A stretch of DNA of 18,268 nt from the UHGV virus genome UHGV-0201843. One strand, written 5' to 3'. How positions within the stretch are numbered: the stretch's first letter is position 1; every line of letters begins with the position of its first letter. The translations under genes and the position numbers were made by a program. Below are positions 1-18,268 of this stretch, in pieces. This DNA is from a virus. The notes beneath the pieces were generated by a model. That model was not told where the DNA came from. It saw nothing but the letters and a program-made list of their open reading frames with translations, and searched no databases.

Positions 1-191
1 CTATGGTTGTAAATTCTATGATCGTTTTTGGTGAAGAATAATTTTTCTTATACTTCACCCCACCCCCTCCCAAAAACGAGACTATAATTTGAGCGCATTG
101 CGAGACAAATTTCGATTGAAAGGTCGATGTACTTTCAAAAAATATTCAATCCATTCTTCACCAAAAACGATCATAGAATTTACAACCATAG
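1..191. repeat. Left terminal fold-back element: perfect 39-bp inverted repeat (1-39 vs 153-191) around a 113-bp spacer that carries the ITR core
   Basis: Direct reading: reverse complement of 1-39 (ctatggttgtaaattctatgatcgtttttggtgaagaat) equals 153-191 exactly. Pairing breaks at 40/152. The outer arm starts at window position 1. Confidence 0.85.
41..105. repeat. Inverted terminal repeat core, left copy (65 bp, perfect match to reverse complement of 18164-18228). Contains C-rich box ccccaccccctccc
   Basis: atttttcttatacttcaccccaccccctcccaaaaacgagactataatttgagcgcattgcgaga is present at 41-105. Its exact reverse complement lies near the right end. Similarity continues imperfectly to about 125. 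Confidence 0.9.
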
Positions 192-228
192 CGACGAAAA
201 TTTTTTTCAAAAAATATCATCAAAACTA

Positions 229-1654: not shown

Positions 1655-2873
1655 ACATCAAATAAAACTACATTTAAACGAATTGATTGATTGGGTGTGG
1701 AGACATAATATCAAGAATGAAAAATATTACTCAAATAATGGTTCATATGTGATATTTGATCATGGTGCAGTCGTTGAAACGTATATTATTAATAAAAATG
1801 ATTTATTTAATGTGACTGATGAAACAGAAATCACACTTGATACACCAATTCAACATTTTTTAGAAAAGGATATGTATGGTAATTATCGTGAACATTTTGA
1901 TATATCAATTCATCAATTATTGTTTTTAAATACAACAACTGATTTATGGTTAATTAATAACGATGATTCACACATTTTAATATATAAAGACGGAAAACTC
2001 ATTGATGAATATATGTATCATGAATTTGAATATGAAGCCAATCAGAATAAGCATATTTACCAAAATAATAAAGCAAGTGGTACATACCCACATCAAAGCG
2101 AACAAAACGTAAAAAAACCGAACAATCACCCTACCCCAAAACCTGAAACACCTGAAGATCACACACCAAAAGTTAGAACAGTTAAGACATTAAACGGTAC
2201 AGTAATGAAAGATTATACACCCGTTTCATCAATACAATATGTTAAATCTGTTGGAATCATTGGTGACAGTGTGGGTAAAGGCGCGCATGCTTCATATAAC
2301 TTTGGTGATTATATTAATGAAAAAAGTGGTGCAAAAATAAAAAACTTATCAGTCAGTAGTGCCACAATGAGTGATGTGAAAGATAATAATATCATTAATC
2401 AAGCGAAACAATTAAAAGATAATGAACTCGTGATTATACAGGGTACTGATGATGATTGGTTGTTTAATTCTAATACAGGTGTTGAAGTAGGAAATAAACT
2501 TACAGATACGAAAACATATATCGGTGCATTTTATAAGGTTATCGAAACGGTTAAAGAAAATAACCCAAAAGCTAAAATCATAGTGATTACACCTACAAAA
2601 CAAGCAAAAGTTGACGATACTGGAAAAGTAATCAGACGTGATACAGATAAAAATAAAAAAGGTTACACGTTGAAAACCTATGTTGACGCACAAGTAAAAG
2701 CAACTAAAGATTTAGGATTAGCTTTATATAATGCGTATGATGATTCATTGATTAATCCATATGAAGCAAAATTCAGACAATCGTCAATGAAAGATGGATT
2801 ACACCCAACAAAATGGGGACATGAAGTAATGTACTACCGTATAGCAGAAACATATCATAAAAAATTTGATTGA
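1644..2873 (+). CDS. Fusion protein (409 aa): N-terminal domain of unknown function, Pro/Thr-rich linker, C-terminal SGNH/GDSL-family hydrolase (esterase) domain
   Basis: TTG start at 1644, preceded by GAGGG (1631-1635) with an 8-nt spacer, overlapping the upstream stop. SGNH blocks: GDS in VGIIGDSVGKG (block I); GTDDD (block III variant of GxND); DGLHPT (block V DxxH catalytic dyad). Linker PNNHPTPKPETPEDHTPK. Confidence 0.7.
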   Translation: MIIKHQIKLHLNELIDWVWRHNIKNEKYYSNNGSYVIFDHGAVVETYIINKNDLFNVTDETEITLDTPIQHFLEKDMYGNYREHFDISIHQLLFLNTTTDLWLINNDDSHILIYKDGKLIDEYMYHEFEYEANQNKHIYQNNKASGTYPHQSEQNVKKPNNHPTPKPETPEDHTPKVRTVKTLNGTVMKDYTPVSSIQYVKSVGIIGDSVGKGAHASYNFGDYINEKSGAKIKNLSVSSATMSDVKDNNIINQAKQLKDNELVIIQGTDDDWLFNSNTGVEVGNKLTDTKTYIGAFYKVIETVKENNPKAKIIVITPTKQAKVDDTGKVIRRDTDKNKKGYTLKTYVDAQVKATKDLGLALYNAYDDSLINPYEAKFRQSSMKDGLHPTKWGHEVMYYRIAETYHKKFD

Positions 2874-2883
2874 GGTGTAGTAA

Positions 2884-3387
2884 ATGAGAAGTGGTAATAA
2901 AGGTAATCGCATTGCACGTTCAAATGCGTTTAGAAATGCAACAAGCAAAAATCAATCAACGTATGAACGTGACGGTTTTGTTTTTTTATTTGATGATGAA
3001 GAATTACAAAAAGAATATATACATGAATATAACAAATTTAATAATTTATTTGTGGAAAAAGGAAAGGTTAAATTACCTAAACCGAAAAAGATAAGTTATA
3101 TTGATGCTAAAAGTTTAGTCAGTGGAAAGAATCAAGAAAAGTTAACAGAAATAGAAAATGTTTATAAACAATTGGACTATGACTGGGAAGAAAAAGGGAA
3201 TATGCACAAACGCCACCTATTCCAAGAAGCAGTCAAAGAAAATGACGGCTCACAAGAAATATCACACTTTATTAAATCAACTGAAAAGTTATTTGAGGAA
3301 CTCGCAGAAGCAACGAACGTACCAGATATTGTCAATAAAAAACAAGTGAAATATAACGTGGTTTATTACGTCAGACGGGTAGGTTAA
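2884..3387 (+). CDS. Basic 167-aa protein of unknown function (candidate DNA-binding or terminal-protein-like)
   Basis: GAGGTG at 2872-2877, ATG at 2884. Lys/Arg-rich N-terminus (MRSGNKGNRIARSNAFRNATSKN). Sits immediately upstream of the packaging ATPase and polymerase genes. Confidence 0.6.
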   Translation: MRSGNKGNRIARSNAFRNATSKNQSTYERDGFVFLFDDEELQKEYIHEYNKFNNLFVEKGKVKLPKPKKISYIDAKSLVSGKNQEKLTEIENVYKQLDYDWEEKGNMHKRHLFQEAVKENDGSQEISHFIKSTEKLFEELAEATNVPDIVNKKQVKYNVVYYVRRVG

Positions 3388-3445
3388 AATATGTTTGAAA
3401 ACATTCAAGATATTATTGATTATTATTCAAGTAAGGAGGGACAAC

Positions 3446-4705
3446 ATGAAAAAGTCACGACTGAATGAGGTCAAAGATTATCAAAATTTTGTAACTAAGT
3501 TTAGACGATCTATTCCAAAGCAATATAACCAAATTGAACTTGTTGATGATTTAATGAATTTAGATATAGATTTTCTTATTTCTATATCAAACCGTTCAGA
3601 TGGTAAAACATTCAACTATGTTGCTTTTTTTATGAAGTTAGCCATTGATTTAGACATCAAATTCACACTACTAGCAAGACACCATACGTTACGTGACGCA
3701 TACAGAGAATTGTTAGAACGTATTTGTATCGAACAAAAACATTTTAACGATAATGATCTATTCTTTAGAAACACACAAGACTATATAGCTGTTGGATATG
3801 GTGATAAAGAAATAGGGATTATTACACATCTCAATAACGCAACAGATTTAAAATATCATTCCAACTTCATGAAAAACTTTCCTATTATCATCTATGATGA
3901 ATTTTTAGCATTGGAAAGTGACTATTTGATAGATGAGTGGGAAAAGTTAAAAACGATTTATGAATCTATTGATAGAAATCATGGCAATATTGATTATATT
4001 AAAATTCCTAAAATCGTATTATTAGGTAATGCTGTGAACTTTTCAAGTCCACTACTTGCAAACTTAAATATTTATGAACAATTACAACATCATTCTAAGT
4101 TTGCGATGAATAGTAAACGTCAATACGGAAATATCATGTTAGAAATGAGGCGTAATGAATTTTCTAATGAGAATCGTAATACACGTGCATTTAATACGGA
4201 TCATGATTCAATGACAACGGGTGAATTTGATTTCAATACATTTAATTTAGCTGATGATCATTTACGTGCACATATATCGAGTAATGGAAACTTTTTCTAT
4301 ATTAAAACCCCTTACAATTATATTAAAGTAATGTATCACTTGAATGACTATCAAACGAATATTAAAGTCGTGCCTTATGCAGACAATTATCAGTTTTGTA
4401 CTGATGTTTCAGATGTTGAAAAAAACGCAATATATTTAAAAGATACATTTTATAAGGAAAATCATTCTAAACGTTATTATAACCCCTCAAATCTTCATTT
4501 TGACAATGCTTATAGTAAGTCTTTTATATTGAATCAAGATGATTTTATTTATCTAAACATGAACAAAATTATTAAGTATCATTTAAAAACTGAACGTAAT
4601 AAAAACGGTTACAAACCTTTTGAACAAAAAGAAAAAATGTATTATGATAATTACATTGAACGTACCAAAAAAAATCTAGTCAAATCATTTATAAGCAATG
4701 TGTAA
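3446..4705 (+). CDS. DNA encapsidation (packaging) ATPase, phi29 gp16-like
   Basis: Strong RBS GGAGGG (3435-3440) before ATG at 3446. The upstream ATG at 3395 lacks a good RBS. Walker A-like SNRSDGKT and Walker B-like hydrophobic run + DE (IIIYDEF). Position upstream of the polymerase as in 44AHJD-like phages. Confidence 0.7.
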   Translation: MKKSRLNEVKDYQNFVTKFRRSIPKQYNQIELVDDLMNLDIDFLISISNRSDGKTFNYVAFFMKLAIDLDIKFTLLARHHTLRDAYRELLERICIEQKHFNDNDLFFRNTQDYIAVGYGDKEIGIITHLNNATDLKYHSNFMKNFPIIIYDEFLALESDYLIDEWEKLKTIYESIDRNHGNIDYIKIPKIVLLGNAVNFSSPLLANLNIYEQLQHHSKFAMNSKRQYGNIMLEMRRNEFSNENRNTRAFNTDHDSMTTGEFDFNTFNLADDHLRAHISSNGNFFYIKTPYNYIKVMYHLNDYQTNIKVVPYADNYQFCTDVSDVEKNAIYLKDTFYKENHSKRYYNPSNLHFDNAYSKSFILNQDDFIYLNMNKIIKYHLKTERNKNGYKPFEQKEKMYYDNYIERTKKNLVKSFISNV

Positions 4706-4762: not shown

Positions 4763-7057
4763 ATGGGATTATTAGAAGCAATGCAAAAAAATAAAGGTCA
4801 AAAACATATGTACCTTTATTGGGATATAGAAACATTAAATTATAATAAAATTGCTGGTAGAGAAAAACCTACAAAATATAAAAACGTGACATACAGTGTT
4901 GCAATTGGTTGGTATGATGGACAACATATTGATGTTGAAGTTTTTTCTAGTTTTAAAGCCTTTTATCAATCTTTTTTCGAATATGCACAAAGACGAGATA
5001 CAATAACAAAATCACAAACTACAATCAATATGATCGCACATAATTGTAATAAATATGATAATCACTTTCTACTACACGATACACAAAATTTCTTTGGTGA
5101 TGATTTAATTATTGAAAATTTATATATGAAAAGTGCTGATGATAATTCAAATACAGTTAATATCAATGAAGCAAAATTATTATCTAAAGAAACCAATGTG
5201 ATTTTAGAAAAACGTGTGAAATCAAGTATTAATTTAGATTTAATGATGTATTTAAAAGGTTTTAAGTTTAATATTATAGACAATTTTATGAAAACCAATA
5301 CATCAATCGCAACACTCGGTAAAAAGCTCAAAGACGGTGGGTTTATCAGTGAAGATGAGTTAAAAACTGATTTTGAATATGATGTGTTTGATGTTGAACA
5401 TGATATGACAGATAAACAAGCTTATGATTATGCTTATGAATGTTTTCATCAACTTACAGCATCACAAATGACCTATATTAGAAACGATGTCATCATATTA
5501 GGTATGTGTCATATCCATTATAGTGATATATTTCCCGGATTTGATTATAGTGCGATGACCTTTAGTGTAAATATTATGAAAAGCTATATTAATAATGAAA
5601 CAACACGATTGCAATTACTCAATAAAAAAGGTAAACAAAAAATATCATATACGGACTTTACATTTTTTGATATGAATTTTTATGACTTTATCAAAGGTTT
5701 CTATCGTGGTGGTTTAAATATGTATAATTCACGATACGTTGACAAAATCATTGATGAGGAATGTTTTTCAATAGACATAAATAGTAGTTATCCCTATGTG
5801 ATGTATCATGAAAAATTACCGATGTATATTTATGATTTTGATGAATATGAACAACCGACAACGATACACATTGATTTAACCAATAAAGATTATTTTTCAC
5901 TTTATAAAATGGATAAGGTCACATTTAATCGTACTATTTTAAGAAATATTGAAAGTGATTTAATTAAGCAATGTCTTGTTAAATACTACAATAATGACAA
6001 AAAGTTTGTTAATATAAATACAAACACTTTACGCATGATTGAAGATTTAACGGGTTTAACTTTTGACAAAATAAAAGTGTTTGCTTTTGTGTGTTATGAA
6101 TGTGAATACTTTGGCGCTCGTGATATTATTCATCATAATTATTTCATCAAAACGCAAGGTAAATTAGATAAAAAAATCATTATGGATTCACCCTATAATT
6201 ACACGATCACTGATGAAGTCAATACACATACTTATTCAAAAGAAGAAATCATGTTAAGTAAAGTTGTTTTAAATGGTCTGTATGGTATACCTGCTTTACG
6301 GTCACATTTTAATTTGTTTAGACGTGATGAGGACGGTTTTTTAGTTAACCATGAAAATGGATATAAAAACAGTGAACGTAATTTATTATTTTCTACTTTT
6401 GTGACATCACAAGCCCTTTATAATTTACTTGAACCATTAAAGTCATTAACACAATCTGAAATAGATGACTGCTTTATATATTGTGATACTGACAGTTTAT
6501 ATTTAAAATCAAAAATTAAACATAAAATAAATGATGAATTATTTGACCCTATTGCATTAGGTAAGTGGGATATAGAAAATCATGTCATTAAAAAAATGTA
6601 TGTACTCAATCATAAAAAGTACGCCTACCAAAAAGAAGATAACACAATTAAAATTGCCAGTGCAGGTATTCCATTAGACGCATTTAATAAGAATCAATCT
6701 TTTGAAAATTTTATTAAAAATGATTTTCACCATAAAGCAATTGTGTATAACAATAAATCCATTTATAACGAACAAAAAACAATATCTATTTACCCGTCAA
6801 AAACATATATTGAAAAGGGTACGCCTTATGATTATTATTTCACTAAAGAATTAGAGGATAGAAAAGAAGATGTTTTAAAACAAGCAAGACAAGAATATGA
6901 TGATGTGAATGATGATGATATATTATATATAGAGAGTGAAGTAGGCGCTTTTTCATTTAGTGACTTATTTCCATATCAATTTGAAATTAAAAATAAATGT
7001 GATCTTAACATATTATATATGGTTCATCAAGATATAAAAAATGACGCTACATCATAG
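4763..7057 (+). CDS. Protein-primed family-B DNA polymerase (phi29-type), 764 aa
   Basis: Exo I (LYWDIETL), Exo II (HNCNKYDNHFL), Exo III (YIRND), motif A (DINSSYP), motif B (KVVLNGLYG), motif C (YCDTDS), KxY (KKY). GAGGTG RBS. Confidence 0.95.
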   Translation: MGLLEAMQKNKGQKHMYLYWDIETLNYNKIAGREKPTKYKNVTYSVAIGWYDGQHIDVEVFSSFKAFYQSFFEYAQRRDTITKSQTTINMIAHNCNKYDNHFLLHDTQNFFGDDLIIENLYMKSADDNSNTVNINEAKLLSKETNVILEKRVKSSINLDLMMYLKGFKFNIIDNFMKTNTSIATLGKKLKDGGFISEDELKTDFEYDVFDVEHDMTDKQAYDYAYECFHQLTASQMTYIRNDVIILGMCHIHYSDIFPGFDYSAMTFSVNIMKSYINNETTRLQLLNKKGKQKISYTDFTFFDMNFYDFIKGFYRGGLNMYNSRYVDKIIDEECFSIDINSSYPYVMYHEKLPMYIYDFDEYEQPTTIHIDLTNKDYFSLYKMDKVTFNRTILRNIESDLIKQCLVKYYNNDKKFVNINTNTLRMIEDLTGLTFDKIKVFAFVCYECEYFGARDIIHHNYFIKTQGKLDKKIIMDSPYNYTITDEVNTHTYSKEEIMLSKVVLNGLYGIPALRSHFNLFRRDEDGFLVNHENGYKNSERNLLFSTFVTSQALYNLLEPLKSLTQSEIDDCFIYCDTDSLYLKSKIKHKINDELFDPIALGKWDIENHVIKKMYVLNHKKYAYQKEDNTIKIASAGIPLDAFNKNQSFENFIKNDFHHKAIVYNNKSIYNEQKTISIYPSKTYIEKGTPYDYYFTKELEDRKEDVLKQARQEYDDVNDDDILYIESEVGAFSFSDLFPYQFEIKNKCDLNILYMVHQDIKNDATS

Positions 7058-16239: not shown

Positions 16240-17460
16240 TTATTCTGTTTCTTCGCTATCTTCTGGTTGTTCTTTTGGTGCTTCAGTGATTAATATTTTA
16301 TTGAAGAAAGGTGACATGGCTTTAAATGAATAGTAATGAATCCAGTGTGTGACTTCATCAAATTCACCATTATAAAATGGCTCTTTTAACATGCCTTTTG
16401 TATTACGTTTGTATTTAAGTGCATTAATATCAAAGATAAATGCGAATAATTCGCCTTGTGGTTTAATTTCTTCAATATTTCCACTAAATTCTTTTAAGTT
16501 TGATACATCAAACGTAAATACTGAACCTGTAGGGATTACATCACCAATCATTGCTTGATAATCACCAAAAGCACGTAAGTAATTAATTGTATCTTCATTA
16601 GATAGTGTGACATCTTTTGTTGTTTTATACACACCACCTAAATCATCAAAACTGATAATGTGATCTGTGAAATCAATACCAGCCATTTGGAAAGTGTTCG
16701 CTATTTTCGTATCAAGTAAATATGATTTAAGTGAATCTGTCGTTAAAATTGCAATATCTTTTAATTTAGATACCGTTGTATATTGTCCTACTGTACCACC
16801 ACTAGCTTTATGAACCTCATTGTATTTGGCACTGTTGTTTTGCATGTTTAAAATTGCTTCAAATACACGTTCAGTTAAATCTTCTTTTGATGAAGCAGTA
16901 CGACGGTTTGAATCTTGTAATTGATTAATTGCATAATCAACCATCATTGCTCTTATTTCTTTTTCTTCTTGAACATTAATATCAGAAATCTTTTTACGTA
17001 ATACACCTAACGCATAATTTGTAGCGTCACCTAATGTTTGGAAATTAAAACGAACATCATTATTATTCAATGTGAATTTCTGTTTTTTAACTATTCCGGA
17101 ACCGTATAAACGCGTTGCCATTTGTGGATAGTTACGTTTTAACATTAATTCTTCTGATTTTGATAAATTCATTTCAATAGGGATCGTATCCATGATGACA
17201 TATTCTTCAGAATATTGTCCGATAAAATCTTGCTCTTTTGCTAACCAATTAAAACGATTTCCCAATGCAATATCAATGAGTAATGTTTCATTGATTTTAG
17301 GGAATAAGTATTTATTCACATATGTTTCAAACATTGTATTTACATTAGACCAATTCTCACCAAAAGTCCATTGCTTACCATAATCATGGTTAAAATCTTG
17401 CAATGACGCTTTTGTTGAATCAGCAATTAAAGTAGGTATATCTGTTTTTTTAGTTGCCAT
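16240..17460 (-). CDS. Major capsid protein, 406 aa
   Basis: GGAGGAG RBS 7 nt before ATG at 17460. Size and position (after scaffold-like gene, before portal) match the MCP of P68-like phages. Confidence 0.6.
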   Translation of the reverse strand: MATKKTDIPTLIADSTKASLQDFNHDYGKQWTFGENWSNVNTMFETYVNKYLFPKINETLLIDIALGNRFNWLAKEQDFIGQYSEEYVIMDTIPIEMNLSKSEELMLKRNYPQMATRLYGSGIVKKQKFTLNNNDVRFNFQTLGDATNYALGVLRKKISDINVQEEKEIRAMMVDYAINQLQDSNRRTASSKEDLTERVFEAILNMQNNSAKYNEVHKASGGTVGQYTTVSKLKDIAILTTDSLKSYLLDTKIANTFQMAGIDFTDHIISFDDLGGVYKTTKDVTLSNEDTINYLRAFGDYQAMIGDVIPTGSVFTFDVSNLKEFSGNIEEIKPQGELFAFIFDINALKYKRNTKGMLKEPFYNGEFDEVTHWIHYYSFKAMSPFFNKILITEAPKEQPEDSEETE

Positions 17461-17473
17461 TGTTTAACTCCTC

Positions 17474-17665
17474 CTATACTTCTTGTGTACCTTCATCACT
17501 ATATGATTGTTTTGTTAATGAATGAACTTGTCGTCCGTATTCATCTTCTGATTTTGATGTAGCAATACTCATATTTTCATTTAATTCTCTTGATTTATTT
17601 AAACGTGAATCTTCATAATTGGCATGTGTCATGCCACGCATTTCATTTCCATCAAATACTGACAT
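17474..17665 (-). CDS. Small polar protein (about 63 aa) between scaffold-like and capsid genes, unknown function
   Basis: AGGAGTG RBS then ATG at 17665 (MSVFDGNEM...). The track start 17674 is a GTG within the RBS. Confidence 0.5.
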   Translation of the reverse strand: MSVFDGNEMRGMTHANYEDSRLNKSRELNENMSIATSKSEDEYGRQVHSLTKQSYSDEGTQEV

Positions 17666-17677
17666 ATTTTTCACTCC

Positions 17678-18001
17678 TTATAAATTTAACATTTCTTTAA
17701 TTTCTTCACTTGATTCAATACCATCTGTTTCTTGATCGTCATCAACTTCAGTAGGTGATGTTTTATCTTCAAAATTTGGATCACTTGATGTTTCATTAGT
17801 TGATTGTGCTTCTTGATTATTCAATCGTTGCTCTAATGCAGTCACACGTTGTTCTAATTGAACAAAAGCCTCTGATTTTTCTTCTGTTGTTTCTTTTTCT
17901 GGTTCAGTGACAACATCTTCTGCACTTTCAATTTTTTCTGGTGATTCTTCTGTTGATTCTGTTTCAGGTTCTTCTTTGATAATTTTTTCTTCTTCTGCCA
18001 T
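17678..18001 (-). CDS. Acidic coiled-coil head protein (scaffolding or inner-core candidate), 107 aa
   Basis: GAGGTG RBS 9 nt before ATG at 18001. Very acidic (E/D/S/T-rich) with central heptad-like LEQRVTALEQRLNNQE. First gene of the late operon, as for phi29 gene 7. Confidence 0.55.
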   Translation of the reverse strand: MAEEEKIIKEEPETESTEESPEKIESAEDVVTEPEKETTEEKSEAFVQLEQRVTALEQRLNNQEAQSTNETSSDPNFEDKTSPTEVDDDQETDGIESSEEIKEMLNL

Positions 18002-18058
18002 TTTATTTACACCTCTTTATTTTATAAAAATAATTAAGCAAATAATTTGCTTGTTTCA

Positions 18059-18087
18059 ATTATAACATAAAAATAAATAAATGTATA
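18059..18087 (-). promoter_or_regulatory. Late-operon promoter on minus strand with extended -10 (TATACA - 17 bp - TGTTATAAT)
   Basis: On the minus strand: TATAAT = complement of 18059-18064, TGT = complement of 18065-18067, -35-like TATACA = complement of 18082-18087. About 55 nt upstream of the first late gene. Confidence 0.45.
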
Positions 18088-18094
18088 AATTTGT

Positions 18095-18268
18095 ATCGTT
18101 TCTTATTCATAATCCATCGTTTAATTTTGAATGTATTTTTCTTAACCTTTTACTCAAAATTTCTCTCGCAATGCGCTCAAATTATAGTCTCGTTTTTGGG
18201 AGGGGGTGGGGTGAAGTATAAGAAAAATACATTCAAAATTAAACGATGGATTATGAATAAGAAACGAT
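18095..18268. repeat. Right terminal fold-back element: perfect 50-bp inverted repeat (18095-18144 vs 18219-18268) enclosing the inverted copy of the 65-bp ITR core (18164-18228)
   Basis: Direct reading: reverse complement of 18219-18268 equals 18095-18144 exactly. The repeat ends at the last base of the window. 18164-18228 is the exact reverse complement of 41-105. Confidence 0.85.

Follow-up and report, generated by a model that had tools for sequence, protein, structure and literature searches.

The window, by which we mean the whole 18,268-nt stretch analysed here (UHGV virus genome UHGV-0201843), is, as judged from its sequence, the complete genome of an Andhra-like Staphylococcus epidermidis picovirus (podophage) of the genus Andhravirus, family Rountreeviridae. 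Phage Andhra aligns with 91% identity across 100% of the window length, and the gene order is the same. Both genes that mark a protein-primed linear genome are present on the plus strand: a terminal protein (TP) gene (2884..3387), ortholog of Andhra gp7 with 88% identity, and the gene of a protein-primed family B DNA polymerase (PolB; 4763..7057) with 96% identity to Andhra gp9. The PolB gives a weak match to PF03175 (DNA_pol_B_2; E = 4.8e-4, under the gathering score), and no Pfam family was found for the TP, the packaging ATPase and the SSB, whose identities come from orthology to Andhra. Andhra gp7 was assigned as the 5' terminal protein (PMC9710869), and replication of Andhra-like phages was described as phi29-like, with monomeric linear DNA whose 5' ends each bear a TP and whose replication is initiated at the extreme termini (PMC9710869; PMC4974454). 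Since a terminal protein gene is present, the native 5' ends of this genome are therefore expected to be protein-capped.

At both ends of the contig an inverted terminal repeat (ITR) is enclosed by a pair of complementary arms. The initial annotation had reported a perfect 50-bp inverted repeat at the right terminus, and a string test bore this out: 18095-18144 is the exact reverse complement of 18219-18268 (50 nt, 100%). In a repeat search this pair could be extended to 55 nt at 96%, with mismatches at 18217 and 18218. The described overlap of the right outer arm with the ITR by 10 nt is likewise real (18219-18228, TAAGAAAAAT), and the last letters of the inner right arm, ATTTTTCTTAacc, indeed nearly repeat the ITR start ATTTTTCTTAtac. 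The same arm-core-arm' architecture is found on the left, where 153-191 is the exact reverse complement of 1-39 (39 nt, 100%, string test). A motif claimed for both ends, ATCGTTTnnnnTTGAA, occurs exactly at 18116 on the right and again, as a copy, at 18248; on the left, only ATCGTTT-TTGG-TGAA is found, which is one base out of register. The distance between arm and template is 113 nt on the left and 74 nt on the right, and the two contig ends do not resemble each other in their outermost 40 nt. An origin of the arm lengths from one de Bruijn k was considered and dropped as inconsistent, the left arm implying a k of about 39-40 and the right arm one of 50-51.

Between the arms of each pair lie the two ITR copies as retained in the window (41..124 on the plus strand and 18145..18228 on the minus strand), which match over 84 nt at 95% in the repeat search. 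Their first 65 nt are identical and they differ at ITR positions 66, 73, 76 and 78. The two arm pairs and the ITR are the three longest of the 175 inverted pairs listed for the window, the remaining ones being 20-44 nt long with just 70-84% complementarity; the arm pairs are therefore not attributable to chance. The perfect arms, the architecture shared by both contig ends and the very stable hairpins predicted for them (single-strand folding energies of -55.5 and -48.5 kcal/mol, with z-scores of -15 and -11 relative to shuffles) would speak for a native structure, which would be a new picovirus telomere design with virion DNA ending in a hairpin-capable arm-ITR-arm'. The stability itself results from how the ends are built.

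With 84 nt, of which 65 are perfect, the ITR of the window is shorter than those of Andhra, Pike, Pontiff and PSU3, which measure 113-143 nt. As seen from 106-152 against 18117-18163, divergence on the left end has affected the inner half of the ancestral ITR, and S-CoN_Ph32 has the same variant left subterminal segment as the window. On the left, the inner part of the ITR is also repeated about 90 nt inward as a degenerate direct repeat (70-113 versus 161-204, 70% identity). The hexamer AAACGA occurs at 74 and 165 on the plus strand and at 18102, 18123 and 18196 on the minus strand, which gives two to three copies per native end in constant orientation relative to the tip, and 21 copies on both strands over the whole 18 kb. 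AAACGA may be a binding motif for an origin-binding or other DNA-binding protein.

To place the ends in the context of the genus, the termini of all records were anchored on the conserved TTCACCCCACCCC. The physical end of the genus lies 26-27 nt upstream of this anchor and reads 5'-AAATATTAAG(G/A)A..ATTTTTTTGGTAC, with the consensus layout 5'-AAATATTAAGRA..ATTTTTTTGGTAC|TTCACCCC. The evidence for this position is nearly direct. The records of Pike, PSU3 and Pontiff start and stop exactly at AAATATT, in JBug18 poly-T junk adjoins AAATATT at both ends, and in the Andhra record the full Illumina index adapter is joined to AAATATT. In total, Illumina adapter is fused straight to AAATATTAAGG at four assembled ends, namely at both Andhra ends and, once in each, in two unrelated IMG/VR contigs (IMGVR_UViG_3300045988_138792 and _136760), in which the last ~25 nt are untrimmed Illumina Read2 adapter. 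Read from the assembled sequences, the fusions in these two contigs are independent evidence for the physical terminus. In this small sample, the strand carried is of the P7/Read2 type at each of the four adapter-marked ends and never of the P5/Read1 type. In TruSeq chemistry, the P7/Read2-type strand is ligated to the 3'-OH. The exclusive P7/Read2 pattern is as expected if a blocked 5' end leaves the 3'-OH strand alone ligatable, and TP-blocked ends were reported not to be ligatable (10.1101/2023.06.12.544617). Sliding-back initiation needs a terminal base reiteration, which is 3'-TTT in phi29, GA-1, Nf and Cp-1 (PMC4974454). The 5'-AAATATT start thus supplies the reiteration for this type of initiation.

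Measured against this terminus, both ends of the window are truncated. Of the 26 nt preceding TTCACCCC, 19 are retained on the left and 12 on the right, and the 12 nt common to both ends are ATTTTTCTTATAC. On the left, agreement with the genus tip AAGAAYA persists over AAGAATA (34-40), including the A at position 40, which is unlike the G of the reverse complement of 152; the AAATATT(A) expected before this stretch is missing. On the right, about 14 nt of native tip (the reverse complement of AAATATTAAGAATA) are missing after 18228. The missing 7 nt on the left and 14 nt on the right are replaced by inverted copies of sequence located about 100 nt inside: the unique part of the left outer arm (1..33) is a non-native inverted copy of 159-191 and that of the right outer arm (18229..18268) a non-native inverted copy of 18095-18134. 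In end-region searches and alignments, no counterpart of the outer arms was found in any of the 17 related records, whose matches begin at window 34-40 on the left and stop at about 18227-18229 on the right. The inner arms (153..191 and 18095..18144, both on the plus strand) are ordinary native subterminal sequence in every relative. Therefore, the inner arms are the originals, i.e., the templates, and the outer arms are the copies. In S-CoN_Ph32, as in other relatives, an orthologue of the left inner arm occupies the corresponding position, and two independent assemblies of the same phage (L203 and L209) contain the arm at 100% identity. The right inner arm aligns to all relatives at an equal offset from the ITR; the Andhravirus fragment on S-CoN_Ph9 has it at 100% identity, as do two Logan contigs (L199 and L200).

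In the contig as given, the ITR fails to reach the last base at either end, and the outer arms are judged non-native for this reason. A terminal reiteration (5'-AAA / 3'-TTT) is also lacking, the contig ending in 5'-CTATGG and, on the reverse complement, 5'-ATCGTT. The window resembles Andhra, Pike and PSU3, which have ITRs of 113-143 nt starting with AAATATT, in its TP and PolB genes, its ITR core (TTCACCCCACCCCC...) and its gene order. It differs from the protein-primed picovirus termini of phi29 (6-bp ITR AAAGTA), Cp-1 and Andhra/Pike/PSU3 in that the outermost 33-40 nt are not ITR, the ends are mismatched, 5'-AAA is absent and the native tip is missing. Despite these ends, the genome belongs to the protein-primed family. 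With the native tip of this phage (AAATATTAAGAATA) reconstructed from its relatives, the native genome most likely has blunt ends with a TP on each 5' end and starts with 5'-AAATATTAAGAATA-ATTTTTCTTATAC...; the string AAATATTAAGAATAATTTTTC would mark this native tip, as opposed to the strings that mark the junctions.

Searches of IMG/VR, JGI/ENA metagenome contigs and GTDB genomes gave no match for the two junction strings of the window, J1 (GGTGAAGAATAATTTTTC) and J2 (GAAAAATACATTCAAAAT), and none for the ITR variant of the lineage, TTCTTATACTTCACCCCACCCCCTCCC. Thus, no independent contig reaching the true tip of this exact lineage was recovered from these sets. Scans with 15-16-mers of the genus ITR motif returned almost exclusively chance matches; two real Andhravirus contigs were obtained, both from IMG/VR, and none came from the metagenome-contig or genome-contig sets. 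Exact-protein look-ups for three small ORFs spanning the subterminal regions found none on record.

Both junctions lie on short complementarities. On the left, the 6-nt microhomology AAGAAT (34..39) is common to the inverted copy (the reverse complement of 153-158) and to the presumed native tip (..TTAAGAATA|ATTTTT). On the right, the microhomology is 10 nt long: TAAGAAAAAT (18219..18228) belongs to the ITR tip as well as to the start of the inverted copy, and its internal partner in this natural inverted repeat is ATTTTTCTTA at 18134..18143 on the plus strand, the putative priming site. Within 500 nt, the terminal 45 nt have no longer inverted match than this one, and 10 nt or more were reached in only 2.6% of shuffles. 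The 10-nt repeat on the right exists because the ITR of this lineage starts with CTTATAC in place of the genus TTGGTAC. The left 6-nt site is not the best available, since three 7-nt alternatives exist, and this counts against a chimeric origin of the arms. At both ends an identical inverted copy of nearby sequence is found together with a skipped segment, as in a fold-back chimera.

The same phage was located in public metagenome assemblies by exact-protein look-ups. Logan contigs from SRR1162601 and SRR1166542 and the ENA scaffold ERZ28650448 are 100% identical to the window, have no arms and end inside the ITR at the repeat boundary, which holds for L199, L200, L203 and L209 (all 100%). A MEGAHIT contig, k141_11390 of ERZ27276124, is 99.98% identical to the window and pseudo-circular: here, the right version of the ITR tip (window 18228) is followed by window 143-222, with 5 nt (TATTC) shared with the expected native tip, and this tip-to-inner junction (J3, GAAAAATTATTCAATCC) lies 10-12 nt from that of the window. 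Given the shared ITR, the join in k141_11390 can be a fold-back, an end-to-end join or an assembler path choice. By arithmetic, the ends of this 18,227-bp contig, compared here up to its last 3.1 kb, should overlap by about 141 nt, and one ITR copy together with 142 nt of the left end has been lost. In one lineage, the truncated ITR tip is therefore joined in three ways, namely at 159, at 148 and at the reverse complement of 18133, and in independent samples of the same phage the junctions are absent or different. A telomere structure would be expected to be fixed, whereas a population of template-switch products would vary; the three different joins thus argue against a telomere structure.

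Taken together, we consider it probable (about 0.78) that the outer arms are microhomology-primed fold-back or template-switch chimeras that became fixed at under-represented, protein-blocked ends, and not telomere structure. The chimeras were most likely formed in vitro, during end repair, from PCR run-off products or in amplification. In such a scheme, the strand with its 3' end at the genome tip would lose its last 7-14 nt, and the trimmed 3' end would pair via a short natural inverted repeat about 100 nt inside (ATTCTT/AAGAAT on the left, TAAGAAAAAT/ATTTTTCTTA on the right). Extension of the paired 3' end by a polymerase would then place an inverted subterminal copy on the truncated ITR tip. 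The chimeric molecules would have ordinary ligatable and amplifiable ends, and the true tips would be protein-blocked and under-represented in libraries. In the assembly graph, the true tips would potentially form a dead end of 7-14 nt past the branch point, so that the assembler would follow the chimeric branch and drop the real tip. The chimeric branch would survive assembly because true tips at protein-capped ends are poorly captured (10.1101/2023.06.12.544617) and the dead ends are very short. The arms would then be expected to show low coverage or support from chimeric reads.

Products of this anatomy have been described. In the PDSM model of end repair, short inverted repeats pair, an exonuclease removes the 3' single strand and a polymerase fills the gap (PMC10908179). 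Of the chimeras generated by MDA, 85% are inverted with an intervening deletion, and the complementarity at their junctions is 2-21 nt (Lasken & Stockwell, 2007; PMC1855051). In ONT ligation libraries, inverted-repeat chimeric reads amount to 0.18-7.3% (PMC13141652). The arms of the window resemble MDA and end-repair PDSM chimeras in that they are inverted copies of nearby sequence with a skipped segment, 5-10 nt of complementarity and 100% identity, and the loss of an unpaired 3' tip, which we infer for the window, would be a further likeness. They differ from these chimeras in that the donor 3' end is the natural genome terminus and not a random break. Therefore, the chimera lies exactly at the contig end and in the consensus rather than in a minority read.

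It is tempting to speculate that the chimeras were already made in vivo, although we regard this as rather unlikely. During protein-primed strand-displacement replication, displaced or near-end nascent strands might snap back or the phage polymerase might switch template; a proofreading exonuclease would trim the unpaired tip and the polymerase would copy back, giving hairpin or palindromic dead-end DNA, which, being TP-less, would be preferentially sequenced from lysates or infected cells. Similar joins occur in three independent datasets obtained with two technologies (the window, the MEGAHIT contig k141_11390 and the ONT record S-CoN_Ph32), and when SSB is limiting, phi29 polymerase was found to switch to the displaced strand (PMC4176320). 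According to PMC2175359, citing Esteban et al. (1997), phi29 SSB prevents short palindromic DNAs; the palindromic DNAs made without SSB resemble the ends of the window in being origin-containing inverted duplications produced by a strand-displacing protein-primed polymerase, and differ from them in being known from in vitro amplification. However, library chemistry alone is known to yield equal products (PMC10908179; PMC13141652; PMC1855051), such joins are lacking in the majority of Andhravirus records as well as in the remaining assemblies of this phage, and the sequence reads alike for in vivo and in vitro formation. If the chimeras were formed in vivo, the arms would report a real side reaction and would still not be the telomeres of the genome. 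If true, such joins, frequent enough to be recovered from independent metagenomes and isolates, would measure how often protein-primed replication misfires at the ends and would be the natural equivalent of the palindromic DNAs that phi29 TP-DNA amplification yields when SSB is lacking.

A purely computational misjoin via the ITR or a short repeat, with no chimeric molecule involved, appears very improbable. ITRs make bidirected assembly graphs ambiguous, and one MEGAHIT contig of this phage, k141_11390, is pseudo-circular. However, the shared 5-10 nt are far below the usual k-mer or overlap length, which makes such a misjoin unlikely, and the junctions are novel strings that must have occurred in reads. 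Moreover, the arm is not adjacent to the ITR as a turn-around in the graph would predict, the left arm starting 28 nt further in.

The initial annotation had left the choice between a systematic end artefact and a real telomere feature; our results support the former and argue against the latter. The refuting condition named there, true ends that lack the outer arms, is borne out indirectly by the comparative data. Native arms are the least probable of the readings weighed here, because the outer arms lie outside the genus-conserved terminus and replace its last 7-14 nt instead of being added to it, occur in none of 17 related records and in no other assembly of this phage, one such assembly having a different junction instead, are joined at microhomologies like template-switch chimeras, are 0% diverged from their templates and differ between the contig ends, which share neither a terminal sequence nor a terminal reiteration, both required for TP-primed replication (PMC4974454), in a genome whose gene content is the ordinary TP/PolB set. 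The ends do recall the covalently closed hairpin telomeres of phage N15, poxviruses and rudiviruses, for which reading round the hairpin gives arm-loop-arm' at a contig end. Unlike these, the ends of the family to which the window belongs are protein-capped, and the arms differ between the two ends, are not conserved and have junctions whose position varies between datasets; no telomere resolvase is found among the 20 annotated genes of Andhra, with which the window is syntenic.

End defects were also observed in other Andhravirus records. In Andhra (KY442063 / NC_047813), Illumina P7 index adapter (…CAAGCAGAAGACGGCATACGAGAT-CACTGT-GTGACTGGAGTTCAGACGTGTGCTCTTCCGATCT) occupies 1-55 and 18493-18546 (55 and 54 nt), and the published and annotated '155-nt' ITR (14-168) includes adapter; the native Andhra genome is 56-18492 (18,437 nt) with a perfect 113-nt ITR. 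JBug18 (MH972263) carries about 91-95 nt of poly-T-rich junk ahead of AAATATT at both ends (1-95 and 18457-18547). The S-CoN records originate from ONT ligation libraries assembled with Flye (PMC11001980). In S-CoN_Ph32 (OR354855), 10-279 is the reverse complement of 342-611 flanking the left ITR, with 100% identity, and the ITR lacks its first ~30 nt. S-CoN_Ph31 (OR354854) has an 889-nt inverted copy of 3243-4131 after the right ITR (18309-19197, 100% identity). Such terminal inverted copies, peculiar to the individual record, favour the reading of the outer arms as chimeras. S-CoN_Ph34 (OR354857) is a 26-kb join of two phages, its 17400-25977 being the inverted left half of a second Andhravirus with ~80% identity. 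Finally, the 89.8-kb Sextaecvirus record S-CoN_Ph9 (OR354832) contains at 88858-89830 (locus 2359-3331) an Andhravirus right end with gp20/gp19-like genes. This tail of about 970 nt starts inside the ITR and is 90% identical to window 17195-18169, rising to 98-100% in its subterminal portion, and is apparently a product of chimeric assembly or of cross-talk between samples.

With the outer arms read as fold-back chimeras, the contig is about 73 nt too long, with 33 non-native nucleotides on the left and 40 on the right, and, since the true 7-14-nt tips are missing, the replication origins as deposited are wrong. A circularity-based completeness call on k141_11390 would be wrong as well, the genome being linear. 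The main value of the finding thus lies in the quality control of the window contig and of related reference records. In summary, end artefacts are common among deposited Andhravirus genomes, and adapter-verified ends (AAATATT...) should be the starting point for work on replication origins, ITR evolution and TP recognition in these therapeutic phages.
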